Notes: generated by a model not told the origin, from the sequence alone. Shown: positions 5,851 to 55,448, counted from the first letter of the stretch. The stretch: DNA of 64,000 bases from a candidate division WWE3 bacterium RIFCSPHIGHO2_01_FULL_40_23 (GCA_001772615.1 MEUZ01000003.1:109698-173697); one strand, 5' to 3'. A program made the numbers and translations.

Positions 5851-6083
5851 TAGCCTTCTTTCTCCTCCGGCCAGATCCTCTTTCCAGTTTCCTCATCATC
5901 AAGAATAATAGCAAGAGTCGGACATGACTTTGCCGCCGCAATGATGGCCTGCACGCTGTCACCAGGAATATCTTTTACGATGGCTATATTCTCATTATCC
6001 AGCTCAAAGGTGTTCGGAGCTTGTACCACACATGTACCTGCTCCTATGCATAAATCTCTAATTACAGTTATTTTAACCTTCAT
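5850..6083 (-). CDS. Small single-cluster ferredoxin.
   Basis: The sequence MKVKITVIRDLCIGAGTCV...AAKSCPTLAI shows the Cx2Gx2C...CP ferredoxin pattern. Confidence 0.65.
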   Translation of the reverse strand: MKVKITVIRDLCIGAGTCVVQAPNTFELDNENIAIVKDIPGDSVQAIIAAAKSCPTLAIILDDEETGKRIWPEEKEG

Positions 6084-6084
6084 T

Positions 6085-7101
6085 TTACCCCTCTATATAT
6101 TTGCCTTCTTTTTTACTCACAGCTTTTAAGTTTAGCTTTGGTTTTTTAAAAAGTCCATACAAAAAATAGAAGCCATAAACCAGATGAGTCAGAAAAACAC
6201 CCATTATAAAATAAAATGTAAGTAAAATGTTCTTTTCTTTACTAAAAACTTTTACTGCCTCATTTAAGAGAAGGATTACATACAAACCGACCACGGAAAA
6301 GTAAAAATAAAAAAAGAACCTGCTAAAGAAAAAAGTTAATGGTCCAAAAAATAAGCCTAAGATAAAAAGCGAGGGCACAAAATACTGAAGTTTTCTTGAA
6401 TTTTTAGGAAATATTTTGGCAAATTGCCCTCTGTGCATACCATATCTTGAAACCTGCTTTAAATGAGGCAAAAAAACAGTCCTTCTATGATGAAAAACAA
6501 CAACTAACGGGTCATATAAAATCTTCTTTCCAGTCTCTTCCAATAAATCAAGGCAAAGTTTAGTATCCTCTCCAGGCCAAAATTCACTTTTAAAACCACC
6601 CACCTTCTTAAAATCCGAAAAAAGAACAAAAAGATTTACCGAAGGGTAATCATCAACATACATCCTTTTACCCACCACATGTCTATGGTAGGTCCCTCCT
6701 CCTGCAAGAGCTGAAGACAAAATTTCACCTGAAACTTTTTCCAAAAAACCTTCATTCGGAGGAGTAATTGATGGCCCACCCACTCCACATAAATTTTTAT
6801 CCGAAAAGTCGGAAGTTGCCTTCTCAAGCCAATCGCTTCTGGGATATGCATCATCGTCAAGAAAAGCAAGAATTTTACCCGAAGCGTACCTTAACGCGAG
6901 GTTTCTTTTATCTGAAGGCCCGACTTTTCCAGAAGGGATCATTTTAAAGTTTTTTGGTAAACCTCTAAAAATCTCTTCTTCATCAGTTATTATAAGAACT
7001 TCATAATTACTATATTTAAGCTTTTTAAGATGAGGAATAGCGTCCCTAAGATAGTTGGTAATTGTTCTTACCGGTATGATAATTGATACCTTTGGCTTCA
7101 T
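6085..7101 (-). CDS. Family 2 glycosyltransferase with C-terminal transmembrane helices.
   Basis: The N-terminus reads KVSIIIPVRTITNYL...EVLIITDEEE, and the sequence contains LDDDAYP. The C-terminal 90 aa are hydrophobic. Confidence 0.75.
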   Translation of the reverse strand: MKPKVSIIIPVRTITNYLRDAIPHLKKLKYSNYEVLIITDEEEIFRGLPKNFKMIPSGKVGPSDKRNLALRYASGKILAFLDDDAYPRSDWLEKATSDFSDKNLCGVGGPSITPPNEGFLEKVSGEILSSALAGGGTYHRHVVGKRMYVDDYPSVNLFVLFSDFKKVGGFKSEFWPGEDTKLCLDLLEETGKKILYDPLVVVFHHRRTVFLPHLKQVSRYGMHRGQFAKIFPKNSRKLQYFVPSLFILGLFFGPLTFFFSRFFFYFYFSVVGLYVILLLNEAVKVFSKEKNILLTFYFIMGVFLTHLVYGFYFLYGLFKKPKLNLKAVSKKEGKYIEG

Positions 7102-7904
7102 TTTCTCATCCCGCTTTTAACCCCACTTAACTTATGTACTTTCATCCAGTTTCTCTTATTTGAATCCTCATAATACTTAAGAAAGTGGAGCCTATAGAAT
7201 ATGGCTAGGGTATCAATAAAAACACCTCTTATATCAGGGTTTAAAAAAAGAAACGCGCTTTTTTTAAAGGAAGTATTCTCAAAATCCCAGTTAATTTCAA
7301 CAGGCGCTTCAAAAATTCTTCTAAACCCCAGATGATTAGCAACAGCGAGAGATTCTATATCAAACGCAAATCGTTTAACTACAAGTCTTGGAAAAACACG
7401 GTCAACAACTTCTCTTCTGTAAACTTTAAGTCCGGTTTGAGTGTCCCCTACTCGCACCCCAAAAAGGGCCTTAACAATTAAATGGTAACCAAAACTGTAA
7501 ATCCTTCTAAAAAGCGGATATTCGTGGATTTTGGAAACAGGGTGCCTTTTGCTTCCGACAATAATATCCGCCCGGTACCACTCCATATGTTCAAGAACCA
7601 TTGAAATCCCATTGGCATTTATGTCCATCCCCGCATCAATAAAAATTACTATATCACCGGAACATAAACTTGCCCCATACCTTATAGCATAACCCTTCCC
7701 TTTATTTATCCTGTAACCTATAACCCTAATATTTCTTTTCTCAACTCTCTTTGCTTCATCAAAAGTTTTGTCTGCAAAGCCGTCAACAACAACAATAATC
7801 TCAAATCTGTACCTTGTCTGGGACATAACTTTATGAATATTTTGTATGTCCTTCTTAATTGTCTTCTCCTGCTTGTAAGACGGAACGATTACCGATACCA
7901 ACAT
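7098..7904 (-). CDS. Family 2 glycosyltransferase. The start is chosen at the internal Met, so the gene is shorter than the track ORF.
   Basis: The N-terminus reads MLVSVIVPSYKQEKTI...EIIVVVDGFADKT. The track ORF 7098..7931 overlaps the upstream flippase by 77 nt, and the later ATG reduces that overlap. Confidence 0.7.
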   Translation of the reverse strand: MLVSVIVPSYKQEKTIKKDIQNIHKVMSQTRYRFEIIVVVDGFADKTFDEAKRVEKRNIRVIGYRINKGKGYAIRYGASLCSGDIVIFIDAGMDINANGISMVLEHMEWYRADIIVGSKRHPVSKIHEYPLFRRIYSFGYHLIVKALFGVRVGDTQTGLKVYRREVVDRVFPRLVVKRFAFDIESLAVANHLGFRRIFEAPVEINWDFENTSFKKSAFLFLNPDIRGVFIDTLAIFYRLHFLKYYEDSNKRNWMKVHKLSGVKSGMRK

Positions 7905-9147
7905 ATCCCATATAGTACAACACAATCGCAAGAAGCAGTAAAAGGGAGATAGAGATATTTATGATCACAACTTCAAGCAGTGATTCGTGGTAAAGGCTTA
8001 TTAACACAAACTGCAGAAAAACAGCAGGGAATTGAAATAAAAAGACTTTGCCTTTATTTATGGCGAGAAAAAACATAACCATAAAATTTATCATTACGTA
8101 AAGGCCCATAAATACTGAAAAGGCGGGTATTAGAAATGAAGCCTTAAGAAATCTCTCTCCAAAAAGAAGGCCGACAAAAAAATCAGGAAAGGTAAAAAAC
8201 ATCAATACGGAAACTAAGGCAAGCGTGAGCTGGATTATAAAAAAGGGCTTTAAGCGCTTTGAAACATCTCCACCCTTGGCATATGCTTCCGAAACCTGCG
8301 GAAACATGACAACCGAAACCGAACCTGCACCAAAAAGGATCACCTTCCCAACAGTAACGGAAACCAAGTAAAGCCCCGCCGATACACCATCAAAAAAATG
8401 CTTCACGAGAATTACATCTACATTATTTAAAAGAACCATTCCTATATTAATCAAAAACGACGCAACGCCAAACTGAAGAAGTTTTCCGTATTCACCGTTC
8501 ATACCATTTCTCCACCCCCCAAAAAGACTCTCCCGCAAAAATAAAAGCCCCAAAAGAAATGAAAGTATCGTTGAAAAGCTCATCCCAAGGTACACACCTG
8601 AAACCCCTAACCCCAAAAACGCGAAGAAGGAAGGGATCGCAAATCTTAAAACAGATGCCGCTACCGAAAGAAAAGAAAAAGCTTTAAACCGTGAAAGACC
8701 CTGAAGATAAGAAAACGGTGGAATAATTAGAAAGGACACACCAAGGTAAATGGAAAAAAACAAAACCATATCGGATTTCTCAAGGTTTAAGTAAGATAAA
8801 ACAAAACTTTGTGAAAATACTACAAGAAGTGAGACAAGAATACCTATAGTGGATACAATTCCTATAAGTCTTGGGAGAAGACTTTTTATAGCCTCATACT
8901 CCCCTTTTGCTTTAAGGTCCGAAACCATTTTAATAACGGAAGTAATAAAAGCATTTATAGGAATGGAAAAAACGATTGATAAAGACAACAGGACACCAAA
9001 TTCTCCATATTCACTTATTGTTAAAAACCTTCCTAAAGAAAGCTGGAGCAAATAACTGAAAATACTGGATACAAATAGACTTGCAGTGACAATAAAACTT
9101 TTATAAACATCATCGTTTTTTAGAAGTAACCGCACCCTTTCAATCAT
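7855..9147 (-). CDS. Polysaccharide-biosynthesis flippase of the Wzx/MOP superfamily.
   Basis: This is a 430-aa polytopic membrane protein with about 12 hydrophobic segments. It lies between glycosyltransferase genes. Confidence 0.6.
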   Translation of the reverse strand: MIERVRLLLKNDDVYKSFIVTASLFVSSIFSYLLQLSLGRFLTISEYGEFGVLLSLSIVFSIPINAFITSVIKMVSDLKAKGEYEAIKSLLPRLIGIVSTIGILVSLLVVFSQSFVLSYLNLEKSDMVLFFSIYLGVSFLIIPPFSYLQGLSRFKAFSFLSVAASVLRFAIPSFFAFLGLGVSGVYLGMSFSTILSFLLGLLFLRESLFGGWRNGMNGEYGKLLQFGVASFLINIGMVLLNNVDVILVKHFFDGVSAGLYLVSVTVGKVILFGAGSVSVVMFPQVSEAYAKGGDVSKRLKPFFIIQLTLALVSVLMFFTFPDFFVGLLFGERFLKASFLIPAFSVFMGLYVMINFMVMFFLAINKGKVFLFQFPAVFLQFVLISLYHESLLEVVIINISISLLLLLAIVLYYMGYVGIGNRSVLQAGEDN

Positions 9148-10769
9148 CTTTCCTTCTTATAAACGTTATAAACTGGGACCGAATCTATATTTATAGTTCC
9201 CTCAAACTTTAAGTTATATTTCATCTTAGTGGAAGATGTATCCTCCCAAACTGGATAAACAAAAAAGTTAGCCCTCTCTGCTTCCGGTCCGAGAGACTCA
9301 AGAACAGCCCATCCTTTTATTTCCCTTATAAAAGGCCAAATTTGAGTATAGTATTTTTCTGGAAATGCGACAGTCAGCTTATCATCAATTCTTCTAGAGT
9401 AAAGAAGCTTACTAAGAGTCTCATTATTCTCAAAAGTCTTATATTCTCCTTGTTCCCTAATGTTATTAAAATATGAGATTATTTCGGGCACGCCAATCAT
9501 CCATTTAGGTTCAAGAACAAAAATACCTCTTTTTAACCCCCCGCCCAGAACACTATAGTAAGAGAAATAATCGGGATGGATTTTCAGATATAAAATGAAC
9601 TGTGGAATAAAAATTAAAAAAAAGATGAGATAAGCTAATTTTTTAAACTTCTCATGAAGATAAGTTAAAAGATAATCATAAAAAAATGAGGAAGCTAAGG
9701 ATAAACCCATAATGGAGGGAAGAATATATCTATCCAGTTTTTTTGAAGGAATGGAGATTTCAATGAAATAAAGAAAAGAAAAGAACAGGCTATAAAGTGC
9801 AAACTTCTTTTTATCCTCGCTTATATTAGCTTTAACAAAAAGCCACCCGATAAAGCCTAGAATTAAATATAAAGAAGTTTTGTACATCAGTACAACGGGA
9901 TAAAACGTAAAGCCGGGATCTGACGTAAGAGAACCAAAATAAATCTGATCATGCCCCCCTTCAACTCCTACGGTAAAGATGCCTGTAAAATAAGTGCTAA
10001 GTGCTTCCCAAGGTTTCACCCACATCCCCGGCCATAACAACACAAACCAAAGCAAAACAATTAAAAACCACCTAAAATAAGAACTCACCATAGATTTAAA
10101 AGTTGTTTTTTTAAAAATAACCTCTACAAAGAGCATAAAAAGAACAAACGGAAGAATCATAAGAGAAGAACTCTTCGTTAAAACGGCGAGCGAGGCAAAA
10201 AAACCTGAAACAAAAAGACTCTTAAAGCCTTTTTGAAAGTTCACGTAATAGTAGAACCAGACAAAAGAAACAACCATAAATGTTGTCATTAAACCTTCAA
10301 GATGCAAAACTTTGGTTAAAGCTATATAAAAAGGCTCTAAAGAAAAAACAGATATTAAAATAAAAGTGGTTTTTACTCCAAACATTTTCCTTAGAGCATA
10401 AAAAAGAAAGGAGATTGAAACTCCCGTAGCAAAGACAACAAAGAATTTTTGAACAAGATCAAGCTCAAAAATAGTTCTTAGTTCATTATTTGGAGGATTG
10501 CTTCCTGTAAAAACCCTGTAGTAAAGGTTATAAACTTTGATGGAAGCGCTTCCAATTATCATTAAGCTAACGCCTGGATGGTATGTTTGAATCGTTTTTT
10601 CAAACTGACCTCCAAATAAACCCCCGCCAAAATCATATATTCTTGCCTTCCATCTCCAAACATCCGTATTAAAATTATCATGGCCTAAGGAGGGAGCCCG
10701 CGACAATATAAATAAAAGGGCAACAAGTATTTCAAATTTTATTTTTCTTATTTTATCCAAAGTTTTCAT
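9144..10769 (-). CDS. GT-C fold membrane glycosyltransferase of the PMT_2/ArnT-like (GT39/GT83-like) type.
   Basis: This is a 541-aa polytopic membrane protein with an N-terminal loop (LGHDNFNTDVWRW). It is paralogous to its neighbours. Confidence 0.55.
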   Translation of the reverse strand: MKTLDKIRKIKFEILVALLFILSRAPSLGHDNFNTDVWRWKARIYDFGGGLFGGQFEKTIQTYHPGVSLMIIGSASIKVYNLYYRVFTGSNPPNNELRTIFELDLVQKFFVVFATGVSISFLFYALRKMFGVKTTFILISVFSLEPFYIALTKVLHLEGLMTTFMVVSFVWFYYYVNFQKGFKSLFVSGFFASLAVLTKSSSLMILPFVLFMLFVEVIFKKTTFKSMVSSYFRWFLIVLLWFVLLWPGMWVKPWEALSTYFTGIFTVGVEGGHDQIYFGSLTSDPGFTFYPVVLMYKTSLYLILGFIGWLFVKANISEDKKKFALYSLFFSFLYFIEISIPSKKLDRYILPSIMGLSLASSFFYDYLLTYLHEKFKKLAYLIFFLIFIPQFILYLKIHPDYFSYYSVLGGGLKRGIFVLEPKWMIGVPEIISYFNNIREQGEYKTFENNETLSKLLYSRRIDDKLTVAFPEKYYTQIWPFIREIKGWAVLESLGPEAERANFFVYPVWEDTSSTKMKYNLKFEGTINIDSVPVYNVYKKER

Positions 10770-12304
10770 TTCGCGTTAACATCAAGAGAAAAAACATACA
10801 CATTAGGACCAAACCTCTGCTCGCTTCTCTCAAAAGACTTTATCAAAGTTAAAAACTTTTTCACATTTTTATATTCCTCTGTATCAGAAAGCCTATCATT
10901 AGTGGCTATCGTTAAGTACGTCGCAGTTTCATTAACACTTATGTAAGAAAGGGACTTTATTCTCCTGTTCTTGTTGTCTATTTTTTCCATAACAGGGTCA
11001 AGATCCCTTCCGGAGTATATAACTTCCTTATCCAAGGGAATGTTTTCACCCGCCCATTCATAAAAAAGATTTCTGGTATCTTTTTCGGATAGCTTCACTG
11101 CATACTTAATTGAGTAAACAAAGGGTGGGAGAAAGACCACCGAAAACAAAATTAAAGAGAGAAGTTTATGTGAAATAAACATCTTCTTTGAAAGAACAAG
11201 ATTGTAGAATAAATTTGCCAAATAACCCACCACTAAGCTCACAAATGGGAAAACAAGCATATAATAATGTATCCTATTTTTTGAAAAACCTGTGATATAA
11301 AGGAAATAAAATAAGCCAGGAAGATAAATAAAAATCTTATCACTAGTCCGTTTAGTAAAAATGAAATAAATAAAGAAAAGTTCAAAAAGGAGAAGGAAAG
11401 AATACCCAAAATCTGAAATAATTTTTGTTGTTAGAACCTTCGATAGCTGAACGAAATACTGATCGGTACTCACCTTTCCCACATTCTCAAACTGCCAGAA
11501 AGCCCCTTTAGGTCCGTCATCCCTGGTGAAAGTATCAAAGTCAAAAAGAGCATATGGGGTACCTACAAAAAAAGAAGTCAAAGAGACAAAAGCGGCAAGC
11601 AGAAGGTTGGCTGACGCCTTTTTAAAACCGTCACCTAGCCTTAAGAGTTCATGGGTTTTCAAATATAAAATATAAGCTAAGAAAATAACAAATACCGAAA
11701 ATCCTCCGTTATATTTAGTTGAAGCAGAAAGACCTGCAAATAAAGCGGCTAAAACATACCATTTCCTTTTCCCTTCTAGCATTATTAATGAAGAAAAATA
11801 AACGGAAAGACTAAACCAGAAGGTCATGGGAACATCAATGAGTGCAAAATGCGAGTTATATGCATGATATGGAAACAAGGTTATGGCAAGAGCTGATAAA
11901 AGCCCAACCCTCTCATTAAAAAGCTTTTTACCTGTGAGAAAAACAGGAATTGCAGTAAAAGCCCCCAGGGCTGCATTAAATATCCTTGAAGCAAGATAAA
12001 AAACAAGCGGGTCTCTCCATAAAATAGGCATCAAATTTGAAATAAAGGGTTTTAAACCAAGAACCTGAAAGGCACCTCTAACAACATATATAAGCATATA
12101 AAGAAAAAAGTTTAGGTAAAAATGAAGGTGCGGCCAATCAAAATGCTTGGGATTTGATTCAAACCTTATACCCGTCGCGGTTCTCACAAGCGCGGGCTCA
12201 TCTACACTATAAATAAAAGGAAAACCATAACTTATTCCATATAATCTTAAGAAAAGCCCTAATAATAATATCAATAAAAGAGGTTTACTCACCTTTTTTA
12301 ACAT
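10766..12304 (-). CDS. GT-C fold membrane glycosyltransferase of the PMT_2/ArnT-like type.
   Basis: A DEP motif sits in the first periplasmic loop (FIYSVDEPALVRTATG). The protein has about 12 TM helices. Confidence 0.6.
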   Translation of the reverse strand: MLKKVSKPLLLILLLGLFLRLYGISYGFPFIYSVDEPALVRTATGIRFESNPKHFDWPHLHFYLNFFLYMLIYVVRGAFQVLGLKPFISNLMPILWRDPLVFYLASRIFNAALGAFTAIPVFLTGKKLFNERVGLLSALAITLFPYHAYNSHFALIDVPMTFWFSLSVYFSSLIMLEGKRKWYVLAALFAGLSASTKYNGGFSVFVIFLAYILYLKTHELLRLGDGFKKASANLLLAAFVSLTSFFVGTPYALFDFDTFTRDDGPKGAFWQFENVGKVSTDQYFVQLSKVLTTKIISDFGYSFLLLFELFFIYFIFTKRTSDKIFIYLPGLFYFLYITGFSKNRIHYYMLVFPFVSLVVGYLANLFYNLVLSKKMFISHKLLSLILFSVVFLPPFVYSIKYAVKLSEKDTRNLFYEWAGENIPLDKEVIYSGRDLDPVMEKIDNKNRRIKSLSYISVNETATYLTIATNDRLSDTEEYKNVKKFLTLIKSFERSEQRFGPNVYVFSLDVNAK

Positions 12305-13829
12305 AAAAATTCCAGAAATTAATCCCCGCTATTTTAATCGTTTTGTCATACACGAATTTTCCTTTAGTTTTATCGGGGGCTATCTCATCACTATCCAAAA
12401 CCAAAATATCATAATTATGAGCACCGTATACCCTAGCATCAAAGACCATTGAGTTAGGATAAATTGTAGACATGGCCTTTCTGTCAACAAACCCCACCCT
12501 TACAAATCCATAGTTTTTTCTTATAAAATCCCTCACCTCAAAAATACCTATACCGAATGACTTTTGACCTATTACCCGATCGGCTACCCTTGGCCCTCCA
12601 AAAAGAGGACTATTATAAACAAAATAATAAGGAAAATACTGAACTAAAGGAATAATATTTATAACGACCAGCAAAAGCGTCAAGGCTGTTTTCACTGGTT
12701 TTCTTTTCACGTTTGAAAAAAAGCTTATTAGAAAATATGAAACCGAAATTATAATAATCGGATATAGCGGCAAAAGATATCTGTCTATTTTTTTATCAGC
12801 TATCTCAACTGCTAAAAAATAAAATAGAAAAAACAAGGAAAGAAAATATAAAATCCCCGGAGCTAGTAAAAGTGGAGGCTTCTTCTTTAAAATAACAGCT
12901 CTAAAAAGATAAACAAGAATTCCTAATGAAGAAAGTAATAATAAAGGAGAAAGCTTATATAAAAAAACAATTGGGTAATAAAAAGGTCCTGGGTTTTCCG
13001 TAACAACTCCGAAAAATTTCTCCTCATGCCCTTTTTCAACAACAAGCTTGCTTCCGGAGTAAATCTTTTTAAAAACCCTTACCGGATCATCCCATAAGGC
13101 TGGGAGTATCAAATATCCTGAAAAAAAGAAGAAAAATACATAAGAAAACAAAACAATTAAAAACTTTTTGAGCGTTATCTTTTTAAAGATATAAAGAAGA
13201 AAGGAAAAGGAAGTAAGAAAAAAGATCGCCAGTATAGAAATATTTTTTGTCCAAAATGAAAAGCCTATAAATAAAGAGGATAATATAAGCCATCCATAAG
13301 AATTTTTTTTGTACCACAAATAATAAGAAACCAAGCCGTTTATAAGAAGCAATGACAAAAGTGCATCCATGTGCAAGAGCCTTGCGTTCCCAAGAAAAAA
13401 AGGCTCAACTGTAAGGAAAAACCCCGCAAGAAAAGAAGTTTCTAGGGTAAAAATCTTGCTAAGGAGAAAAACTAAAATTAAAGTTAAGATAAGTAGGGAA
13501 ACATTAAGAGTGTACTTTGCAACGAAATGAAAGGCCTCATAGGAGAATCTGTCATACCCCACTCTTGGATTGGATAAACGCTTAAGAATTTCAACGGGAG
13601 CACCTGTGATAAGCATTAGAGTAACCCCTGGATGATAGTGTTGGTATGTTCTTCTGAAATCCCTGCTTTTAATCGCGTCTATATACTGCTCTGATCTAAA
13701 ATGCCAATTAAGGGCGTCAGGGTTCATTTCATCATTACCAAGCCTTGGTACATGGGTAATAAAATAAACAAAAGCAAAAACAATGGAATAGATAAAAACT
13801 TTATTTTTCAATAGCATAAAAAACCCCAC
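12285..13829 (-). CDS. GT-C fold membrane glycosyltransferase of the PMT_2/ArnT-like type.
   Basis: A DE motif is present in HVPRLGNDEMNPD. It is a polytopic membrane protein. Confidence 0.6.
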   Translation of the reverse strand: MGFFMLLKNKVFIYSIVFAFVYFITHVPRLGNDEMNPDALNWHFRSEQYIDAIKSRDFRRTYQHYHPGVTLMLITGAPVEILKRLSNPRVGYDRFSYEAFHFVAKYTLNVSLLILTLILVFLLSKIFTLETSFLAGFFLTVEPFFLGNARLLHMDALLSLLLINGLVSYYLWYKKNSYGWLILSSLFIGFSFWTKNISILAIFFLTSFSFLLYIFKKITLKKFLIVLFSYVFFFFFSGYLILPALWDDPVRVFKKIYSGSKLVVEKGHEEKFFGVVTENPGPFYYPIVFLYKLSPLLLLSSLGILVYLFRAVILKKKPPLLLAPGILYFLSLFFLFYFLAVEIADKKIDRYLLPLYPIIIISVSYFLISFFSNVKRKPVKTALTLLLVVINIIPLVQYFPYYFVYNSPLFGGPRVADRVIGQKSFGIGIFEVRDFIRKNYGFVRVGFVDRKAMSTIYPNSMVFDARVYGAHNYDILVLDSDEIAPDKTKGKFVYDKTIKIAGINFWNFYVKKGE

Positions 13830-14691
13830 CCAGAAGACTTACTAAAAGCCTTATAAGATGATAAACGATAGATGCCGAAATGGCTCCTTCAAGCGAAACT
13901 CCCACCTGCAAGAAAAGAAGCCCGTAGAGAGCATCCTGAACCCCAAAAGAATTCTGGGAGGGTATGAAAAAACTCGCGAGTATTATCACTGGGAAGGCAA
14001 AAAAGGAAAACCCTAAAGGAATAGGAAATCCTAGTGAAACAAAAATAAAATGCTGCGTAAGGATTGAAAATACCTGAACAAAAATAGAAGTTATAAAGGC
14101 GTAAATTAAAACTCCCTTCTGCCCTTTATATACTTTTAACGCGTCTGAAAACTCTTTTAACTTTCTAATCTTCAAAGAAAGCTTATCAATAACCTTAAAG
14201 AATACAAAAATTGCAACCCAAAACCCGAAAAACATCAAAAAGCCATAGATTTTAAAAACCCCAATCAAACCATAAGTAGCAAATAAACTTAAAATTACAA
14301 CACCGCTGAATCTTTCCATAAACGTTGCGGCAAAGGCTTTAGAATGATCTTTTATATATCGTCCAAGCCTAAAAGCCTTATAAACATCTCCCCCAATACT
14401 AGTTGGTAGAAAATTATTAAAAAATGCTCCTATAAAATAAAGTTTAACCAAAGTAAAAAGTTTAACATGCTCTGTTCCATCAAAAATACTTAACAGCTTT
14501 CTCCACCTTAAAGAAGAAACCACATAATTTAAAATGATAAAGGAAAGAATTATAGGTAAATAAAAAAAGTCAATCCCTTTAATGCTTTCTATAAACAATC
14601 TTTTATCAATCTTATAAAAGATTAAAGCTAACAAAAAGATACTGACAAAAACTTTTATCAACGTTTTTTTAAAATTTTCGGTTTCCTTCAT
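13801..14691 (-). CDS. Flippase-like membrane protein with a lysylphosphatidylglycerol-synthase-TM-like (UPF0104) region.
   Basis: The sequence FFNNFLPTSIGGDVYKAFRLG is typical of the family. The protein has about 8 TM segments. Confidence 0.5.
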   Translation of the reverse strand: MKETENFKKTLIKVFVSIFLLALIFYKIDKRLFIESIKGIDFFYLPIILSFIILNYVVSSLRWRKLLSIFDGTEHVKLFTLVKLYFIGAFFNNFLPTSIGGDVYKAFRLGRYIKDHSKAFAATFMERFSGVVILSLFATYGLIGVFKIYGFLMFFGFWVAIFVFFKVIDKLSLKIRKLKEFSDALKVYKGQKGVLIYAFITSIFVQVFSILTQHFIFVSLGFPIPLGFSFFAFPVIILASFFIPSQNSFGVQDALYGLLFLQVGVSLEGAISASIVYHLIRLLVSLLGGVFYAIEK

Positions 14692-16133
14692 CTTTTTAAA
14701 TTTAATATCAACCGTTTAATACTAATAACCTTCAACTTATCTACAACGTATAAACAAATTAGAGAGTACACTAAGTAAAACAAAAATCTAAGTAGGAAAC
14801 CAGACACAAAAAAGTGTGGGAAGGTTATAAGCGTTAAGCAAATTGTCAGAACCAAAAACTTTTGATCAAGAATATTAAATTTAAGACCCCTCTTAATCAT
14901 AAAATATAAACTAATAAATGAAAGCGCAGAGCCCAAAAATAAAGCGAGAGACATTGAATTTATACTACTAAACTTAAGAACAGATAACATAAAAAATGAT
15001 GCAACCGAAGTAAAAAGAAGAATAAAATATGAAACGGACATCTCAACAATCATTTTAGAGGGTATGAGGATACTTGATTTAATAATGTTAACATAGGAGT
15101 AAAATGTGAAGGCAAGAACAAGAGGTACTATTATCGGAAAAACGGACGAGTATTTTGATCCCACAGCAAATAAAATTATCTCCTTTGAAAAGTATATTTG
15201 AGAAAGAGCCGCAAACAATATCAAGACATAAAGCTTGTCAAAATTTTCGTGGAAAAGTTTCTTAAAACCTTCAAGGTTTTGGGTAAATTCTTTTGAAAAT
15301 ACAGGAAGGTTTACATCAGTTAGGGCATCAGAAATCGCCATAAGCTTGGATGAATAAAGAACCGCAAAACTGAAAATCCCAACGACCTCTAGAGACTCAA
15401 AATACCCTAAAGTGATTTGGCCAAACTTATACCATAACGTATATAAAACTTTAACAAAGTATATTCCAAGACTTAATATAAGCACATTTCTAAAAATCAG
15501 TTTAAACTCCCCTCCCGATGGAAGCTTTAAATGAGATCTTATAGGCCATAAAGCAAGAAAAGCCAAACTAAAAGATGACACAACATTAAACAAAGTCAAA
15601 GCAATAAAATAACCGTTCACACGATAATAAAAAACCAATGGTGCATAAAGAACAAGACTGACGAGCGATATACAAGCCTGATATAAAAAAAGCCTCTTAA
15701 ATCTTTGAAGACCTGCAATAACTGAATTAAATATGCTTTGAACTCCCTGTATAACCAAAACAAGAGAGTAAAGCCTCAACGGAAAAATTATTTCACTATG
15801 TTTATAAACATGCTCCGAAAGATAAGGAGCTAAAATAAAAAGACCAAGAGCAATAGGCAGTGTAATTATATATTTAATGGCTACGGAAGAAACAAAAATC
15901 TTAAATACGTCTTCTTCCCCTTTAGATGCGGAGATTTCCCTTGTTGTTCCCGATGCAAGGCCCAAATGTTGTGCGATACCAAAAAGGGCTCCGACGGCAC
16001 CCACAATCCCCACCAAACCAAACTCCGAAACCGTCAGAATCCTTGTAATAATTACACTCTGAAGAAGACCGACAACAAGGGCTGAAAACCTTGAGATTAT
16101 GCTAAATATCTGCCATTTACCAAGGCTACTCAC
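14688..16133 (-). CDS. Polysaccharide-biosynthesis flippase of the Wzx/MOP superfamily.
   Basis: This is a 481-aa polytopic membrane protein. Confidence 0.55.
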   Translation of the reverse strand: MSSLGKWQIFSIISRFSALVVGLLQSVIITRILTVSEFGLVGIVGAVGALFGIAQHLGLASGTTREISASKGEEDVFKIFVSSVAIKYIITLPIALGLFILAPYLSEHVYKHSEIIFPLRLYSLVLVIQGVQSIFNSVIAGLQRFKRLFLYQACISLVSLVLYAPLVFYYRVNGYFIALTLFNVVSSFSLAFLALWPIRSHLKLPSGGEFKLIFRNVLILSLGIYFVKVLYTLWYKFGQITLGYFESLEVVGIFSFAVLYSSKLMAISDALTDVNLPVFSKEFTQNLEGFKKLFHENFDKLYVLILFAALSQIYFSKEIILFAVGSKYSSVFPIIVPLVLAFTFYSYVNIIKSSILIPSKMIVEMSVSYFILLFTSVASFFMLSVLKFSSINSMSLALFLGSALSFISLYFMIKRGLKFNILDQKFLVLTICLTLITFPHFFVSGFLLRFLFYLVYSLICLYVVDKLKVISIKRLILNLKR

Positions 16134-17563
16134 AACTTTCTCCTAACTAAATAAACTTCCGTAAGCAAATTGCCGTTATCGTCATAAAATGACTCAATCG
16201 GTGCTTGATTTTTTACTCTACCGCTTTTCTTCCTAAGAAGACTCTGCGAATTATAAACATAAATGTATAAATCATACTTAGACATGGGATCCTTTAAAGG
16301 TTTTATATAATATTTTATAAGTTTATCTCCCTCATTTGATAACACGGATGCAACACTTTCATTCGTACGGATGAACTCATTAGCTTCTTTAAGCCTCCTG
16401 TTATAAGGAAAACCAAAAATACTTAAATGGTAATAATCTGATGGCATGGAAACTTTCCAAAAAAGAATCTTTTTCTCTGCCCATGGATACTCAACCTCAT
16501 GGTCAACAAAAATTAAATAGCTTTGGTACAAAAAGAAAAGGAAAGCAAGAGAAACACCTAAACCATATGTAATCTTAATAACTTGATTCTCAAGCAACTT
16601 GTATACAGCTACAATTCCATAGGAAGCTATAACAATAGTAGGAGGAAGATAATTATATATATGAGTCCCGGGAACTGAAGCAATAAAATTAAGGGTAATA
16701 AAAGAAGGCAAAAGCCATAAAAACATCGGCAAAAGCTTCCTATTTCCAAAAATTACACCTGCGACAAAAAACAAAATCAAAAAGTAATATGTAAAAAGGG
16801 GGTTATAAAGTTTGAAAGTAACAGAAGTGTCGGAAACTTTGTCAACCCCTCCTTCAAGTCTCTCAAAAAGATAGCTTTTTGTATTGGAAAAAGAAGAGCT
16901 TGTTAAAAAAGGAACATAAAACAATGAAACCAAAATAGTGAAAATTAAAAATCCAAAAAACAAAAAATATAACTTCTTTGACAAAAATCCTCCTTTAAGC
17001 CACTGATAAAGAAAATAAGCAACTATCAATAAAACAAACGCACCATCGTAATGAGCTAGAAGACCCAAACCAAGAAAGATAAAAGACAAAATTAGGTGGA
17101 GCAGTTTTTTGCTTCGTCTTAACTTCTCAAAGAAAAAAAGTGATAATAAATAAAATAAGAACGTAAAAGACTGATATTGAACTATTCTTGAAAAAGCAAC
17201 AAAAAAACCATTGACAGATAAAAACAGAGAAGAAAGTAGAGCTACCTTCTTTCCATACATCTGTCTTATGAAAAAATAAAAAATAAAAACCGAAAGAACT
17301 CCCGCTAAGAAAAAGGGGGACCTTGTGATAAATTCATCATAACGCTCGGAAAATAAGCTAACAGCAAAAGTGACAAGAAACTGGATCGGCCCCTTCTTTT
17401 GGGAAAGCAAGAATTCAGTTAAGGGCGCACCTTTAACATATAAAGCTCTGATCTCATCTCCCTGAAACTCCGAATAAGACAGGTTTGAGAGCCTCAAAAA
17501 GACGCTAACCGCAAGCAAAAAGATAAGACCTATTATTTCTTTCCTTCTTAACAAATACCTCAT
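16130..17563 (-). CDS. GT-C fold membrane glycosyltransferase of the ArnT/PMT-like type.
   Basis: A GDE motif sits in the first loop (SEFQGDEIRALYVKG). It is a polytopic membrane protein. Confidence 0.6.
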   Translation of the reverse strand: MRYLLRRKEIIGLIFLLAVSVFLRLSNLSYSEFQGDEIRALYVKGAPLTEFLLSQKKGPIQFLVTFAVSLFSERYDEFITRSPFFLAGVLSVFIFYFFIRQMYGKKVALLSSLFLSVNGFFVAFSRIVQYQSFTFLFYLLSLFFFEKLRRSKKLLHLILSFIFLGLGLLAHYDGAFVLLIVAYFLYQWLKGGFLSKKLYFLFFGFLIFTILVSLFYVPFLTSSSFSNTKSYLFERLEGGVDKVSDTSVTFKLYNPLFTYYFLILFFVAGVIFGNRKLLPMFLWLLPSFITLNFIASVPGTHIYNYLPPTIVIASYGIVAVYKLLENQVIKITYGLGVSLAFLFFLYQSYLIFVDHEVEYPWAEKKILFWKVSMPSDYYHLSIFGFPYNRRLKEANEFIRTNESVASVLSNEGDKLIKYYIKPLKDPMSKYDLYIYVYNSQSLLRKKSGRVKNQAPIESFYDDNGNLLTEVYLVRRKL

Positions 17564-19641
17564 CTAACAAAAACCTTCCCAAGGAATATATTGTAAGTTT
17601 TTATGTTGTTCGTCATTCCAACAAATACATTATAATTTCCGCTTGGAGAGGAATCAGGAAGTACAAATTTATTATCTTCAAGATAATAAACCCCCTCTTC
17701 CCAGTTTAAGGGAGGGTTCACACCAAAAGAAGGCAGGTTAGCTATCTGATGAATATACTTTCCATCTTCACTCTTAAAAGAAGTATAAATCACGTATGCG
17801 TTCAAGCTCGCGTCCCCTTCCTTCTTATACACAAAATTAACCTCAAACTCCTTTCCCTTTTCAATAATTTGCGGAAGGTTAAAATCGGATAGGTAAAGAC
17901 TCTGCCCTATTGAATAATTAACCTTTTCAACGTAGTCAAAATCCTCCTGCAGAGGAAGGATCCTTTCACCCGGGCCGGAAGTCTCCTTTTTAAAAACAAA
18001 AATATTGGAGCATGAGTAGATAAGTTTATAATCGGGATTTCTCAAAATATGTCCCACAACTTTATTTATTAAATCAAGATTAACTCCAAGTATAGATAAA
18101 ACTTTTTTGGAATTAACATCAACGACAACATAGTCGGAAGTATCAAAGTTTGCGGGAAATAAAGCATTTACCCTTCTTGTTGAAAAATGGGCACCTAAAT
18201 AATCCGGTGCCGTTACTGTAGCACTCGATGGAACAAGGCTAACAACCCCATCAAAACAGTTCCAGTCTTTGGTTTCAAGCCTGTTTACTTTAACCCTTTC
18301 ACCTTCTTTATAGTTCTTAATCTCATCTACCTCACCTGACGCAAAAGCAAATCTTCTACCTAATGACTGTGTGAACCATAGCAGAATAGGGTTTTGATAA
18401 AGGTTTGACGTATAGATATTAGTAGCAAGCAATAAAATTGAAATAAAGAGTGAAAGTTTTTTAGGCTCTTTTCTTAAAAATACCCTATAAGCATCTTCAA
18501 ATAATTTGATGGAAAATAAAACAGAGATAAATAAAATTGGGATGATCATACTTATACGGTGGTTATAAATTTCGGCTGTCCCAACACCTGACTGCGTTGT
18601 TAGATAATTGATTAAAAATTCTGGGGAAGATATTAGAAGGATTGGAAGATAGAAAACGGGAAGATATAAAAGAGGCATAAAAGTCATATTAAAGTTTTCT
18701 TTTCTATCCCCAGAGAAAAAAATTTTAATTACCTTTCCTGGGTCAAGCGCCATATTCTTTAAAATCTCAAGATAAGACTCCCCAAACTCCTCATACCTGC
18801 TTAGGAAGTAGTTAGGTTTAAGGACATCCTTTTTAGCGTCTATATCAACTCCGATACTTTGAACAAACCTCTGATAACCCTCTATCCTGTAGTGTGAAGC
18901 GTTTGGTATCAAAACAAAAAAAGTTATAAAAAACCACAAGAGGGAGATGGTCCCCATTAATAAAGCGATCTTTCTTTGCCCTCTAAAAAAGAAAATGAAC
19001 CCAGCGTATGCAAGAATTATAAGAGAAATTTCCTCCTTTCCTGCCATCGTTAAAAGAATTAGAAAAAAGAACAATAAAACTTTATTTCGGGTAAATAATC
19101 TCTTTATATACATGTCCTCAAGCAAAAGAAATGCACCTAAGAAGAAAGGAACCACTGACGTGACACCGTGAAAACCCGTCCAAGCGAGAAGATATCCTAC
19201 GGCAGGATAAAAAAGAAAGGACAAAGCCACGAACATAGATGCAAACTTTGAGTTTAAAATCCTTGTCCCGATTAGATAAAGAAGAAATGATGAAGAAATA
19301 AGCAGAAAAAGTTGAGCAACAACAAGAATCCTTGCATCCGGAAATACTGCATAAAATGGAACAAAGACGAGAAGGAATGGATCAACGTGGCTCATCCCCC
19401 ACCTTGGCATATTTGCGCCGAAATAATCGGTCACCTCCATAAACCTTCCATTAAGAGTGTTGTAAACCATTTGGCTCATGTTTCCAAGGTCAAATTTACC
19501 GTATTCATAATTGCGATACCTGAACATCGTAACTCTCACCGATGTTATAAATACAATCGCCGCCATTCCTACTACTATAAATAAGGGGAGGCTTCTTTTC
19601 ATATTTTTAATCGTTTTAGACTCGTAATTTATCATATACAA
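17560..19641 (-). CDS. Large membrane protein, DUF2079-like (a putative GT-C-type glycosyltransferase), with a C-terminal extracytoplasmic domain.
   Basis: The 693-aa protein has an N-terminal polytopic region (NMSQMVYNTLNGRFMEVTDYFG...HVDP) and a soluble C-terminal half. Confidence 0.5.
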   Translation of the reverse strand: MYMINYESKTIKNMKRSLPLFIVVGMAAIVFITSVRVTMFRYRNYEYGKFDLGNMSQMVYNTLNGRFMEVTDYFGANMPRWGMSHVDPFLLVFVPFYAVFPDARILVVAQLFLLISSSFLLYLIGTRILNSKFASMFVALSFLFYPAVGYLLAWTGFHGVTSVVPFFLGAFLLLEDMYIKRLFTRNKVLLFFFLILLTMAGKEEISLIILAYAGFIFFFRGQRKIALLMGTISLLWFFITFFVLIPNASHYRIEGYQRFVQSIGVDIDAKKDVLKPNYFLSRYEEFGESYLEILKNMALDPGKVIKIFFSGDRKENFNMTFMPLLYLPVFYLPILLISSPEFLINYLTTQSGVGTAEIYNHRISMIIPILFISVLFSIKLFEDAYRVFLRKEPKKLSLFISILLLATNIYTSNLYQNPILLWFTQSLGRRFAFASGEVDEIKNYKEGERVKVNRLETKDWNCFDGVVSLVPSSATVTAPDYLGAHFSTRRVNALFPANFDTSDYVVVDVNSKKVLSILGVNLDLINKVVGHILRNPDYKLIYSCSNIFVFKKETSGPGERILPLQEDFDYVEKVNYSIGQSLYLSDFNLPQIIEKGKEFEVNFVYKKEGDASLNAYVIYTSFKSEDGKYIHQIANLPSFGVNPPLNWEEGVYYLEDNKFVLPDSSPSGNYNVFVGMTNNIKTYNIFLGKVFVR

Positions 19642-20782
19642 AGTCTACCTTTCTCGCTTGTGCATCCCATGAGAAACGGCTTCTGATAAGATTTATGTCA
19701 ATCTTAACACTCTCCTCCGTTATTTTTGTAATAAGCTCTGCTAGACTATCCGCACTATGAACCTTAACTTCATACAAACCTTTAATATCTAGAGGAAGTT
19801 TAAACCCCGATGCCGCCACAGAAATACCGCATGATAATGCTTCCAATACCACTTTCGGAAACCCTTCATAAACAGATGGGAGAACAAAAACATCTGACAA
19901 CTGATAATAAATCGGCAGTTCTGGATTAGACTTTTCACCTACAAATTTAACTCTTAATCCCAAACCTTCACTTGCAACTATCTCTTTAAGTTTATCCACA
20001 TATGCTTTCTCTCCCTTGCCAACAAGCATTACTACAAAGTTAGAGGGTAAAAACTTTAGAGACTCAACAATAAGGTGTATGTTTTTTCTGTCTACAAAGG
20101 CGCCGATATTAGATACTACAACTGCATCTTCTTTGATTCCTACTCGCCTTCTTAAATCCAATTTTTCGTAAGGGTTGCAGGGTTTAAAGATATCGGTATC
20201 AACTCCTGATTCTATAACTATTAACTTTTTTTCATCGGCTGAATACTCCTTAATAAAATCATTCTTAACCGATTCACTGACGCAGATACAGTAACTCGCT
20301 AACTTCAGCGCTAATACTTCTGACAATTTGTGCAGGGGCCATTCAATGAACTTACTAAGAACATAGATCCTCTTGCCCGAATGCAGGATTTCGTTTTCCC
20401 TAGCCTTAGAGCAAATGTGAAAGTGAGCAACTATTGGAGTTTTATCAATAAATCCAAAAAGAAATTTATAGATATAAATATAGAGTCCAAAGTGTCCATG
20501 TAAATGAAGAACGTCCACTTTATGGAAAAGTCTCCAAAATACAAAGTAAATAGCCATCAATGGTGCCGTCGTTACAAGGGCTGTCCCCTTTATTGGGGCT
20601 CTTAGAAAAGCCTTAATATCAACATTACTAAGTAATTCTAAAGCACCAGCCTTTGGCCATCTTGCACAAAAAACAGTTATGTGGTGGCCAAGCTTTGTCT
20701 GTGCTTTCGTCATACCATAAAGAGCAGGAGCAAGTCCTGTCCACGGTGGCGGCCATTCATAAACGACTCTTAATATCTTCAC
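19616..20782 (-). CDS. GT4-family glycosyltransferase (GT-B fold).
   Basis: The sequence contains EGFPKVVLEALSCGISVAAS (an EX7E motif). Confidence 0.75.
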   Translation of the reverse strand: MKILRVVYEWPPPWTGLAPALYGMTKAQTKLGHHITVFCARWPKAGALELLSNVDIKAFLRAPIKGTALVTTAPLMAIYFVFWRLFHKVDVLHLHGHFGLYIYIYKFLFGFIDKTPIVAHFHICSKARENEILHSGKRIYVLSKFIEWPLHKLSEVLALKLASYCICVSESVKNDFIKEYSADEKKLIVIESGVDTDIFKPCNPYEKLDLRRRVGIKEDAVVVSNIGAFVDRKNIHLIVESLKFLPSNFVVMLVGKGEKAYVDKLKEIVASEGLGLRVKFVGEKSNPELPIYYQLSDVFVLPSVYEGFPKVVLEALSCGISVAASGFKLPLDIKGLYEVKVHSADSLAELITKITEESVKIDINLIRSRFSWDAQARKVDFVYDKLRV

Positions 20783-20831
20783 ACGTGGATTATATCAACT
20801 AAAACCCTTACCCAAAAAGGTCTTTTATATC

Positions 20832-22040
20832 TTATTCGGAGTTTAATACCTCCGATATTACCTCTAAATACTGATTGGCCATTTTTTCCACAGAGAAAAG
20901 TTCCTTGGCTTTTTTTAGAGCACCCTCTCCCATCCTAACTCTTAATTTTGGATCGTTAAGTAAAAGCTTAATTTTCTGTGTGAAATCCCTCCAATTTCCG
21001 GCTTTAATTAAAAATCCCGTCTCATTATCAAAAACGCCCTCGTTTACCCCTCCAAGATCCATGGCCACAATAGGAAGCGAGGCCATCATTGCTTCAGGGA
21101 TCGTCACTGGAAAGCCTTCTCTTCTTTTTGTAGGAAGAATAAAAATGTGGGAACTTTCATAGAACTCCTTTAATTCCTCTCTTTTTACAAAGCCAAAAAA
21201 GTGTATCCTATCGGAAACACCCTTTGACTGGGCATATTCTTTCAAAGCTTTTTCATCACTCCCTCTTCCCACAATGTTAAGTCTTAAATCCCCTAACACC
21301 TCCGATAAAAAACTTACACAGTCAACAAGTTCAAATAGCCCTTTATCTTTCTCAACCCTTCCAACATAAATCAAAGAAGGTTTGGAAGTTTCTCTTATTT
21401 TAGGATCCACACCCATATCCTCCACTCCGTTATAAATAACCTTGACCATTTCTCTACTTATACCTGTTTCAAAGATAATGTTGTCTTTTACGAAGAGAGA
21501 AACGGCAACCACCAAATCGCTCCCATGAATAAATTCTTTCTGTCTTGTAAGAAGGGTTTTTAGCACGTATACAAAATCCTTAAGCATCCCCGGCAGGCTT
21601 AATAGTCTTTTAGGCCTCGATAATACTGTTTTAAGCTCCCCTAATATTGTGCCGTGTGCGATAGAAATAACAGGAATGCCTACCTCATTTTTGTGTCTGA
21701 TAATACCCAAACCTGCCGAGCTTTGACTTAAAGCTATATCATACGGGAAGTTTTTATGGTCTTCTAAAAACATCTCAAAGCTTTCCTTATACCATTCATC
21801 CCTTACGTTACTTCCTAAAATATGGTCAGTAAAAATTTTATTTTTGGGCTTTACGTTAACAAACTTATAAAGAACCCCGTTAACGGTTTCCTCAATGCCA
21901 TTAAGCTCACCAGCAGGTGAGTAAACTGTAACTGCGTGCCCCCTTTGGGTAAAGGCCTCGCAAAGAATCTTGTTTTGAACCTCAAGTCCTCCATGATTTG
22001 GGTGAAAAGTTGTTGATTTAATAAATACAGCTATATTCAT
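20832..22040 (-). CDS. GT4-family glycosyltransferase.
   Basis: The sequence contains EGFPVTIPEAMMASLPIVAMDLGG. Confidence 0.75.
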   Translation of the reverse strand: MNIAVFIKSTTFHPNHGGLEVQNKILCEAFTQRGHAVTVYSPAGELNGIEETVNGVLYKFVNVKPKNKIFTDHILGSNVRDEWYKESFEMFLEDHKNFPYDIALSQSSAGLGIIRHKNEVGIPVISIAHGTILGELKTVLSRPKRLLSLPGMLKDFVYVLKTLLTRQKEFIHGSDLVVAVSLFVKDNIIFETGISREMVKVIYNGVEDMGVDPKIRETSKPSLIYVGRVEKDKGLFELVDCVSFLSEVLGDLRLNIVGRGSDEKALKEYAQSKGVSDRIHFFGFVKREELKEFYESSHIFILPTKRREGFPVTIPEAMMASLPIVAMDLGGVNEGVFDNETGFLIKAGNWRDFTQKIKLLLNDPKLRVRMGEGALKKAKELFSVEKMANQYLEVISEVLNSE

Positions 22041-22041
22041 T

Positions 22042-23242: not shown

Positions 23243-23734
23243 TTAAAAGGTTTCTAACTCTCTGTACCAGTCCGGCATCTTCATAAACACTTCAACCTGC
23301 TTTTTTATTCCAGCTTTAATTTTAGTCTTTGGGTTAAAACCAAAAAAAGTTTTGGCTTTAGTAAGAGAAAGTGGCACACCAGCCATAGCGGCAAGGTGAA
23401 TAACAACTTCAAACTGGTGCTTTTTAAAAAGTGATTTCAGAAAGTCATAATCAACTATATCCCCTTGTGTAAATAAGAAGCTACCTCTCACTCCCGTTTC
23501 AAGTTTTGAAAGACTCCCAAACTCATCAAGAACTTCTTTAACACCGGCTTCAGGAAAGGTAACGGGTTTATTGCCGCTTGAAAGAAAAGTTAAATCAAGG
23601 TTAAACTCTTTGCATTTTCTTGGATAGTAAGGATGGAAATTATCAATTCCTAAAACGTCATCCCCCCTTTGAATGAGCTTGCGGCATAAAAAACTCCCGA
23701 TAAAACCAGCAACTCCAGTCACTAAAACCTTCAT
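23243..23734 (-). pseudogene. NAD-dependent epimerase/dehydratase remnant with an in-frame internal deletion. The Rossmann N-terminus and the C-terminal tail remain, and the catalytic middle is missing.
   Basis: MKVLVTGVAGFIGSFL...VIHLAAMAGV is joined directly to the C-terminal-like ...KAKTFFGFNPKTKIKAGIKK. Only 163 aa remain, against about 310 aa for family members. A full-length paralog lies at 24787..25773. Confidence 0.5.
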
Positions 23735-54995: not shown

Positions 54996-55079
54996 TATTA
55001 ACATGTCAAATTAAAAATTTCTCTTCTGCTCTTGTATTTTCTTAGTTGAGCCTTCTCTCAGAAACCCGCGAGAATAAGT

Positions 55080-55140: not shown

Positions 55141-55193
55141 AATGTTTAAAAGAGGCATACTTTACGAATTATTACAAAAAAAGTGAGTGAAAA

Positions 55194-55409: not shown

Positions 55410-55448
55410 AGATATCCAGATTAATGGTTTTTTAGCATATTTTATTTT

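Follow-up and report, generated by a model that had tools for sequence, protein, structure and literature searches.

Gene content of the block

We analyzed a 64,000-nucleotide stretch of DNA (hereafter the window) from the groundwater candidate division WWE3 bacterium RIFCSPHIGHO2_01_FULL_40_23 (GCA_001772615.1 MEUZ01000003.1:109698-173697), with attention to a block of eight open reading frames (ORFs) at positions 7855-19641 that encode predicted glycosyltransferases and flippases. This block probably forms the conserved core of an operon for an envelope glycan that extends over ~27 kb of one strand in WWE3 (Katanobacteria, within the Candidate Phyla Radiation, CPR), in which GT-C-type glycosyltransferases extend a surface glycopolymer outside the membrane. 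Families were assigned by comparing Pfam and NCBIfam profile scores with the gathering scores or cut-offs of the profiles. The block contains the following genes:

7855-9147, (-) strand: F430, 430 aa, MOP/Wzx-like flippase (Polysacc_synt_3 38 bits, Polysacc_synt 29.7 bits)
9144-10769, (-) strand: G541, 541 aa, divergent PMT_2-type GT-C with a C-terminal alpha/beta domain
10766-12304, (-) strand: G512, 512 aa, PMT/PMT_2-type GT-C glycosyltransferase (PMT 45.7 bits, PMT_2 45.7 bits)
12285-13829, (-) strand: G514, 514 aa, G541 paralog, divergent PMT_2-type GT-C (PMT_2 24.7 bits, below the gathering score)
13801-14691, (-) strand: L296, 296 aa, "flippase-like domain" protein resembling the transmembrane (TM) part of MprF (LPG_synthase_TM, PF03706)
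14688-16133, (-) strand: F481, 481 aa, MOP-family Wzx-like flippase (Polysacc_synt_3 69.2 bits, Polysacc_synt 57 bits)
16130-17563, (-) strand: G477, 477 aa, PMT_2/PMT-type GT-C (PMT_2 52.9 bits, PMT 33.2 bits)
17560-19641, (-) strand: D693, 693 aa, DUF2079 protein (112.7 bits) with a predicted GT-C-fold membrane domain

In the ORF listing, these eight minus-strand ORFs fill the interval, and all genes between 652 and 28882 lie on the same strand, in line with a sequence-only reading of this DNA that had placed all block genes on one strand. Successive ORFs overlap by 4, 4, 20, 29, 4, 4, and 4 nt, which matches the 4-29 nt given in that reading; the overlaps shrink to 4-20 nt if the gene starts of public assemblies are used, according to which G514 has 510 aa (start 13817) and D693 has 691 aa (start 19635). 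Across the one-strand cluster running from 27673 to at least 652, every junction is ≤161 nt, and many genes overlap. These tight or overlapping junctions, together with a gene order kept in 51 species, support the earlier proposal of a single transcription unit, and the genes are therefore probably co-transcribed. The GenBank entry "hypothetical protein A2716_03730" of WWE3 bacterium RIFCSPHIGHO2_01_FULL_40_23 matches D693 with 100% identity; nine further cluster genes that we looked up are likewise deposited as hypothetical proteins (A2716_03670 to 03725). UniProt labels G541 and G477 as "RgtA/B/C/D-like."

The family assignments revise the gene inventory. The sequence-only reading had described five consecutive GT-C paralogs of 477-541 aa; only the 541-, 512-, 514-, and 477-aa proteins match PMT_2 or PMT, whereas the 481-aa protein is a flippase, and the four PMT_2-type genes are not consecutive, being broken up by L296 and F481. 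A count of five GT-Cs stands at the fold level, with D693 as the fifth member, but F481 had been miscounted among them. The other components named in that reading were recovered: two Wzx-like flippases (Polysacc_synt_3 scores of 38 bits for F430 and 69 bits for F481), an LPG-synthase-TM-like protein (296 aa, 133.9 bits), and a DUF2079-like protein of 693 aa (112.7 bits).

GT-C glycosyltransferases of the block

G512 (45.7 bits) and G477 (33.2 bits) pass the gathering score of PF02366 (PMT), a family to which neither G514 nor D693 has a match. G514 scores 24.7 bits against PMT_2 (gathering score 26.1), and G541 falls below both thresholds, with 21.5 bits for PMT_2 (gathering score 26.1) and 20.3 bits for PMT (gathering score 22.7). 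All-against-all BLASTP identified G541 and G514 as the sole clear pair (28% identity over 430 residues, E 2e-39). We then compared profiles built from orthologs in related loci using hhalign, which aligned G541 with G514 at E 9e-76 and found G541, G514, G512, and G477 to be mutually related (93-97% probability, E 1e-7 to 1e-10); D693 had no detectable sequence kinship to these four by the same comparison. The pairwise alignment that the sequence-only reading had proposed for its five paralogs thus relates four of them, mostly at the profile level, but not F481, for which hhalign gave 0.1-0.2% probability against the PMT_2-type proteins and 0.1-0.3% against the GT-Cs as a whole. Judged from these alignments, the four PMT_2-type GT-Cs are anciently diverged family members rather than products of a recent tandem expansion. 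In place of the dense five-paralog duplication described earlier, the block holds four distant PMT_2-type enzymes and a DUF2079 GT-C, each of them an old orthologous group.

AlphaFold2 gave a confident model of G541 with a GT-C fold (30 homologs; predicted local distance difference test score, pLDDT, 89; predicted template-modeling score, pTM, 0.91). D693 aligned to PF09852 (DUF2079) with 112.7 bits over residues 46-504 (gathering score 28.2), and its model (pLDDT 86, pTM 0.82) matched ALG12 (17.2), Pmt4 (16.3), ArnT (16.0), and AglB (15.5). In this model, the membrane domain of D693 has the GT-C fold and is accompanied by an alpha/beta domain outside the cytoplasm and, at the C terminus, by a beta-sandwich. 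On this basis, the DUF2079 protein is also predicted to be a GT-C-fold enzyme, and the block therefore holds five GT-C-fold proteins. In our full-text literature searches we found no paper on the function of DUF2079/PF09852, and searches on GT-C or GT39 in CPR likewise gave no functional information.

Membership in the GT-C superfamily is supported at the fold level. ALG12 and ArnT, whose acceptors are glycans or lipids, score equal to or above the protein O-mannosyltransferases (PMTs) in structure comparison; the actinobacterial GT-Cs AftA, AftB, AftD, PimE, and EmbA are also fold-level matches, scoring lower than ALG12, ArnT, and PMT. Two more specific identities were considered and rejected. 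G512 is not an oligosaccharyltransferase by its scores, with 22.3 bits for STT3 (PF02516; gathering score 24.5), 22.8 bits for archaeo_STT3 (cut-off 450), and no WWDxG; since the W[WYF]DxG motif is absent from all eight block proteins, none of them appears to be an STT3-type oligosaccharyltransferase. An ArnT (GT83) identity was set aside because no GT-C of the block matches ArnT in NCBIfam and lipid A genes are reported to be absent from WWE3 (PMC3812714).

Conserved acidic residues and topology

We evaluated conservation of acidic residues after the first TM helix (TM1) using 58-71 aligned orthologs per family, except for G477, for which 3 orthologs and a 31-sequence alignment of broader homologs (A3) were used. 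In G512, D35 (100%), E36 (99%), and D56 (100%) are conserved among 67 orthologs, and the D36-E37 pair of G477 is ≥90% conserved in alignment A3. G514 conserves D33 (92%) and D38 (97%), whereas E34 of its "NDE" is present in only 39%; G541 conserves D31 (86%) and D36 (99%) within GHDxFNTDVW and has no DE pair. In D693, D51 (within FDLGN), D72, and D87 are each 98% conserved. The sequence-only reading had assigned a first-loop DE/GDE/DEP motif to its paralogs: conserved acidic residues are indeed found in all of the GT-Cs, but a uniform "DE" is not, as only G512 and G477 keep it.

A short Lys/Arg-rich segment precedes TM1 in each GT-C protein, and in the G541 model D36 lies at the beginning of the first helix past TM1. 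Both features fit the canonical GT-C arrangement, in which the N terminus would be cytoplasmic and the catalytic Asp would lie in external loop 1. Single-sequence and profile searches with G477, G512, D693, and alignments A1, A2, and A3 found no GT-C among Protein Data Bank sequences, so sequence comparison does not link the conserved Asp to particular catalytic residues of ArnT or PMT. A simple predictor based on hydropathy and the positive-inside rule performed cleanly on the flippases; in the GT-Cs it called too few TM helices (8-10 segments) and was therefore not used for their full topology.

Flippases and the MprF-like protein

F481 has 14 hydrophobic segments, and F430 has 12, with a K/R bias of 21 versus 5. 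Both proteins score above the Pfam gathering score and, with 12-14 segments, have the characteristics of MOP/Wzx flippases; hhalign relates them to each other with 98% probability. L296 scores well above threshold for PF03706 (133.9 bits; gathering score 33.4) and for TIGR00374 (77.8 bits; cut-off 43.2). It is genuinely absent from a RAAC2-like subclade, in which F481 abuts G514. Mutual substitution of L296 and GtrA was considered and rejected: loci lacking L296 show no GtrA domain upstream of DUF2079, and RAAC2 has a plain 228-aa glycosyltransferase family 2 (GT2) protein there.

Conservation of the block across WWE3

The comparison of locus organization with related genomes that the sequence-only reading had called for revealed a gene order conserved across WWE3. 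A scan of one genome per species yielded 75 loci, of which 51 had enough flanking sequence to be counted. All 75 are from WWE3/Patescibacteria metagenome-assembled genomes (MAGs), some carrying generic Saccharibacteria labels and a few carrying other generic labels, and they include the complete RAAC2_WWE3_1 chromosome. D693, F481, G514, and G541 are each present in 51/51 loci, followed by G512 (50/51), F430 (48/51), the adjoining GT2 gene GT2_277 (46/51), and L296 (40/51); a second adjoining GT2 gene, GT2_338, was found in 36/51, a count limited by flank length. Of the 51 loci, 45 keep the order D693-F481-(L296)-G514-G512-G541-F430 unbroken. Groundwater metagenome contigs of up to 416 kb carry identical loci. 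Full-length homologs with 42-60% identity number in the hundreds for both G541 and D693, and among the top 120 matches for each protein the named sources are mostly WWE3 or Patescibacteria MAGs.

G477 is present in only 2 of the 51 species loci and is thus an accessory, lineage-specific gene. Beyond WWE3, its nearest relatives are labeled as cyanobacterial, Anaerolineales, or Chloroflexota proteins and share 33-37% identity with it. Upstream of DUF2079, other WWE3 loci encode a 228-aa GT2 and a different extra GT-C-like protein of 509-528 aa, at these positions:

Locus L006, 184-1770: extra GT-C-like protein
Locus L007, 334-1908: extra GT-C-like protein (PMT_2 27.8 bits)
Locus L067, 1124-2653: extra GT-C-like protein

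This protein was rejected as an ortholog of G477 (BLASTP E 0.53), and the differing extra GT-Cs indicate that the accessory GT-C complement varies between lineages. One of these loci (L006, 18837-20825) further encodes a membrane protein of 662 aa, for which the precomputed AftB_C match is weak.

Genes adjoining the block

Downstream of F430, the cluster continues as follows:

7098-7931, (-) strand: GT2_277, DPM1/ArnC-like GT2, part of the conserved core (Glycos_transf_2 80.8 bits; public start 7904)
6085-7101, (-) strand: GT2_338, membrane-anchored GT2, part of the conserved core (Glycos_transf_2 53.9 bits)
5850-6083, (-) strand: ferredoxin, 77 aa (Fer4_13/15)
4882-5850, (-) strand: DUF4015-like protein, 322 aa (UniProt name "DUF4015 domain-containing")
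3124-4806, (-) strand: B12-binding radical SAM (S-adenosylmethionine) protein, 560 aa (Radical_SAM plus B12-binding)

Upstream of D693 are:

19616-23223, (-) strand: three GT4 (GT-B-fold) cytoplasmic glycosyltransferases, directly upstream (Glycos_transf_1 92-138 bits)
23750-24751, (-) strand: GT2_333, ArnC/GtrB-like GT2, an upstream supply gene
24787-25773, (-) strand: NAD-dependent epimerase, 328 aa
25789-26574, (-) strand: GT2_261, DPM1-like GT2
26537-27673, (-) strand: GT2-GtrA fusion (GtrA_DPMS_TM 58.5 bits)

The best solved relatives of GT2_277 are the Pyrococcus dolichyl-phosphate-mannose synthase (E 1e-12, catalytic domain only) and ArnC (E 1e-8), and its top NCBIfam matches are PgfS, PpgS, and ArnC; from these similarities, GT2_277 is a candidate polyprenyl-phosphate-sugar synthase. 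GT2_333 aligns over its full length (residues 3-329) with ArnC (E 9e-41) and GtrB (E 4e-33), and PgfS is the best NCBIfam match of the GT2-GtrA fusion. Both GT2_333 and GT2_277 score below the NCBIfam equivalog cut-offs. The first GT4 gene overlaps the start of D693 by 26 nt. Next to GT2_333, a 163-aa ORF at 23243-23734 (-) joins the N-terminal Rossmann part of an NAD-dependent epimerase/dehydratase to a short fragment of the C terminus; this gene seems to be an epimerase that has been truncated or has lost an internal part, and it lies beside the intact 328-aa epimerase.

The downstream stretch of two GT2s, ferredoxin, (DUF4015), and radical SAM protein is also syntenic across WWE3 and adjoins the GT-C block in many loci. 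We found no HpnI-like match for GT2_338 in NCBIfam. HpnJ is the best NCBIfam match of the radical SAM protein, followed by BchE, but a true HpnJ identity was rejected (151.6 bits versus a cut-off of 577). The ferredoxin/DUF4015/radical SAM trio may modify a sugar or a lipid-linked intermediate by radical chemistry. Downstream of the radical SAM gene are genes for a GmhA-like SIS protein, a methyltransferase, a further GT2, and an NTP-transferase/GHMP-kinase fusion that extends past the window start. The GmhA-like SIS_2 protein (190 aa) is encoded at 2390-2962 (-), and the 571-aa NTP_transferase/GHMP-kinase fusion occupies window positions 1-651 and continues in locus L001 at 20115-21626; the two hint at a branch for nucleotide-diphosphate-heptose or other sugar-1-phosphate activation that feeds the cluster.

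Beyond the one-strand cluster, a BacA/UppP undecaprenyl-diphosphatase is encoded at 36178-36930 (-) with a score of 234.5 bits. Its presence shows polyprenyl carrier recycling, and its flanks hold SecA (33576-36134) and signal peptidase (32248-32796).

Proposed pathway for a surface glycopolymer

The combination of polyprenyl-phosphate-sugar synthase, flippase, and GT-C is a well-known mechanism class, and the gene content, GT-C folds, conserved acidic residues, and WWE3 gene order described above suggest how it would operate here. Cytoplasmic GT2s of the DPM1/ArnC/GtrB type would load single sugars onto polyprenyl phosphate, the candidates being the core protein GT2_277 and, from the upstream genes, GT2_333, GT2_261, and the GT2-GtrA fusion. 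The lipid-linked sugars would then be moved to the outer leaflet, for which F430, F481, L296, and the GtrA domain are candidate flippases; any undecaprenyl-diphosphate-linked oligosaccharide made by the GT4 and GT2 enzymes would be flipped likewise. Outside the membrane, five GT-C-fold transferases (G541, G514, G512, and D693, plus the accessory G477) would add sugars to the growing cell-surface glycopolymer, each using a conserved Asp in its first external loop and each probably forming a different linkage. The DPM1/ArnC/GtrB-like GT2s in the operon and BacA nearby suggest that the block GT-Cs use polyprenyl-phosphate-linked donors. The earlier idea of GT-Cs that use lipid-linked sugars on the outer face of the membrane, served by flippases, is well supported by the GT-C folds, the acidic residues after TM1, and these GT2s. 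Three features favor a polysaccharide or lipoglycan acceptor: how many GT-Cs there are, the presence of several candidate donor synthases, and the domain on D693 that resembles a carbohydrate-binding module.

Several observations weigh against this pathway. An initiating phosphoglycosyl transferase, a Wzy polymerase, a ligase, and a LytR-CpsA-Psr (LCP) protein were all absent from the 64-kb window, so the acceptor pathway is incomplete as seen. Scans for promoter and terminator consensus sequences gave scores at the level of shuffled sequence and were uninformative. L296 is missing from a whole subclade and is therefore not essential to the module. In addition, the likeness of the D693 beta-sandwich is generic, as transglutaminase and macroglobulin domains score equally.

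Protein O-glycosylation is a live alternative, although one that we consider considerably less likely. The PMT-like GT-Cs would then act as protein O-mannosyl or O-hexosyl transferases that decorate secreted, S-layer, pilin, or sortase-anchored proteins as they emerge from Sec, for which actinobacterial Pmt and the streptococcal Pgf system are precedents. G512 and G477 pass the PF02366 threshold and have a conserved Asp-Glu after TM1, as PMTs do, but the DE pair is missing from G541 and G514, which do not reach the PMT/PMT_2 thresholds, and ALG12 and ArnT score at least as high as PMTs. PgfS is the best NCBIfam match of both GT2_277 and the GT2-GtrA fusion; however, five GT-Cs, several lipid-sugar synthases, two MOP flippases, and three GT4s exceed the needs of a PMT system. 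In favor of this alternative, Kantor et al. (PMC3812714) suggested glycoproteins or a glycosylated S-layer and reported sortases and predicted sorted proteins in WWE3, but the operon encodes no target protein. The only candidate target in the window, and a weak one, is a secreted-looking ORF at 56386-57735 with a Ser/Thr-rich patch (13 of 30 residues).

That ORF lies on the (-) strand and has no Pfam match; with its patch, SNTSTTSTETPDISQT, it could be a target of O-glycosylation. Because tRNA-Glu (57597-57673) overlaps the upstream part of the ORF, translation probably starts further in, at MKKVILIISAF..., a signal or anchor sequence.

It is improbable that the GT-Cs instead extend the chain of a membrane-anchored lipoglycan or glycolipid, as in mycobacterial lipomannan/lipoarabinomannan (LM/LAM) synthesis or the CsbB/YfhO glycosylation of lipoteichoic acid, rather than a wall-linked polymer. 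An MprF-TM-like protein of the lipid-flippase type (L296) inside the block and a window devoid of detectable LCP ligase or polymerase point in this direction, but we identified no enzyme that would form the lipid anchor (e.g., PimA-like or a diacylglycerol glycosyltransferase), and the actinobacterial GT-C matches score below ALG12, ArnT, and PMT. This alternative overlaps the surface-glycopolymer pathway, differing solely in the anchor.

The idea that unrelated membrane proteins, for example transporters, lie side by side by chance and share no pathway is already refuted: two of the eight proteins are transporter-like flippases and two GT-Cs fall below Pfam thresholds, but hhalign connects all four PMT_2-type proteins, G541 and D693 match GT-C folds, and the gene order is intact in 45/51 species loci.

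Comparison with known systems

The surface-glycopolymer pathway most resembles several characterized modules in part. In streptococcal GacI/J/K/L (group A carbohydrate), a MOP-family protein flips an undecaprenyl-phosphate-linked monosaccharide for a GT-C. Both this module and S. mutans SccN/M/P/Q run from a GtrB/DPM1-like GT2 through a MOP/Wzx flippase to a GT-C that acts on a wall polysaccharide, with the components encoded together in a polysaccharide operon of a single-membrane bacterium. The WWE3 block differs in having five GT-Cs, one of them of the DUF2079 type, together with two MOP flippases and an MprF-TM-like protein, and it has no detectable sequence orthology to Gac or Scc. The actinobacterial arrays for LM/LAM and arabinogalactan (PimE, MptA-C, EmbA/B/C, AftA-D) likewise deploy many linkage-specific GT-Cs on a large extracytoplasmic glycan, with polyprenyl-phosphate monosaccharides supplied via Ppm1/DprE as donors; AftA, AftB, AftD, PimE, and EmbA are among the fold-level matches found here.

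The GtrA/GtrB/GtrC and CsbB/GtcA/YfhO systems, which glycosylate O-antigen and teichoic acids, are similar in that a GtrB-like GT2 (GT2_333) and a GtrA domain are combined with GT-Cs; however, each Gtr system uses a single GT-C and acts on a polymer synthesized elsewhere, whereas in WWE3 five GT-Cs form a conserved core. The ArnC/ArnT pathway for lipid A aminoarabinose and Rhizobium RgtA-D are further relatives in kind, but the WWE3 proteins reach no NCBIfam ArnT or ArnC equivalog score. Lipid A synthesis is reported to be absent from CPR genomes including WWE3 (Kantor 2013, PMC3812714), so the acceptor cannot be lipid A. The GT39 PMTs (yeast Pmt1/2/4, actinobacterial Pmt) share the fold, the PF02366 matches of G512 and G477, and Asp-Glu after TM1; they differ from the WWE3 proteins, which have no MIR domain and among which G541, G514, and D693 lack the DE pair.

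Possible role in the WWE3 envelope

Hardly any biochemical work exists on the envelopes of CPR/Patescibacteria, through whose surface these bacteria presumably attach to their hosts. The block order is kept in at least 51 WWE3 species, and the operon accounts for ~3% of the ~0.9-Mb recovered genomes/contigs; this conservation and share of the genome suggest that it likely makes a central envelope component. Our analysis adds structure-model evidence for a GT-C glycosyltransferase fold of DUF2079, a corrected gene inventory, and candidates for heterologous expression.

Among four CPR genomes, WWE3 had the most glycosyltransferases and alone had no complete identifiable peptidoglycan pathway (Kantor et al. 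2013, PMC3812714), which leaves room for an operon making the main envelope polymer. A far-reaching and quite doubtful extension is that the near-invariant block (DUF2079 GT-C, three PMT_2 GT-Cs, two MOP flippases, two GT2s, ferredoxin, DUF4015, and B12-radical-SAM protein) is the machinery for the main wall or envelope polymer of Katanobacteria. If so, this polymer, a polysaccharide or a lipoglycan, would for the most part be put together by GT-C enzymes on the outside of the membrane; it might make up for the reported gaps in the peptidoglycan pathway and might carry a radical-SAM-modified sugar, and DUF2079 would be a previously uncharacterized GT-C polymerase or priming enzyme.

Other features of the window

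A 585-aa protein with VanW and PG_binding_4 domains is encoded at 58212-59969 (-), which bears mention given the report of an incomplete peptidoglycan pathway in WWE3. Meheust et al. 2019 reported enrichment of the VanW/PG_binding_4 family in CPR. The GC content of the window reaches its minimum (0.309) in a dip at 54001-56000 that coincides with a 383-aa polytopic ORF at 53844-54995 (+) with no Pfam match. A serine recombinase gene (60480-62369) and tRNA-Gln (60568-60641) lie a few kilobases from this dip, and the region could be a small integrated element.

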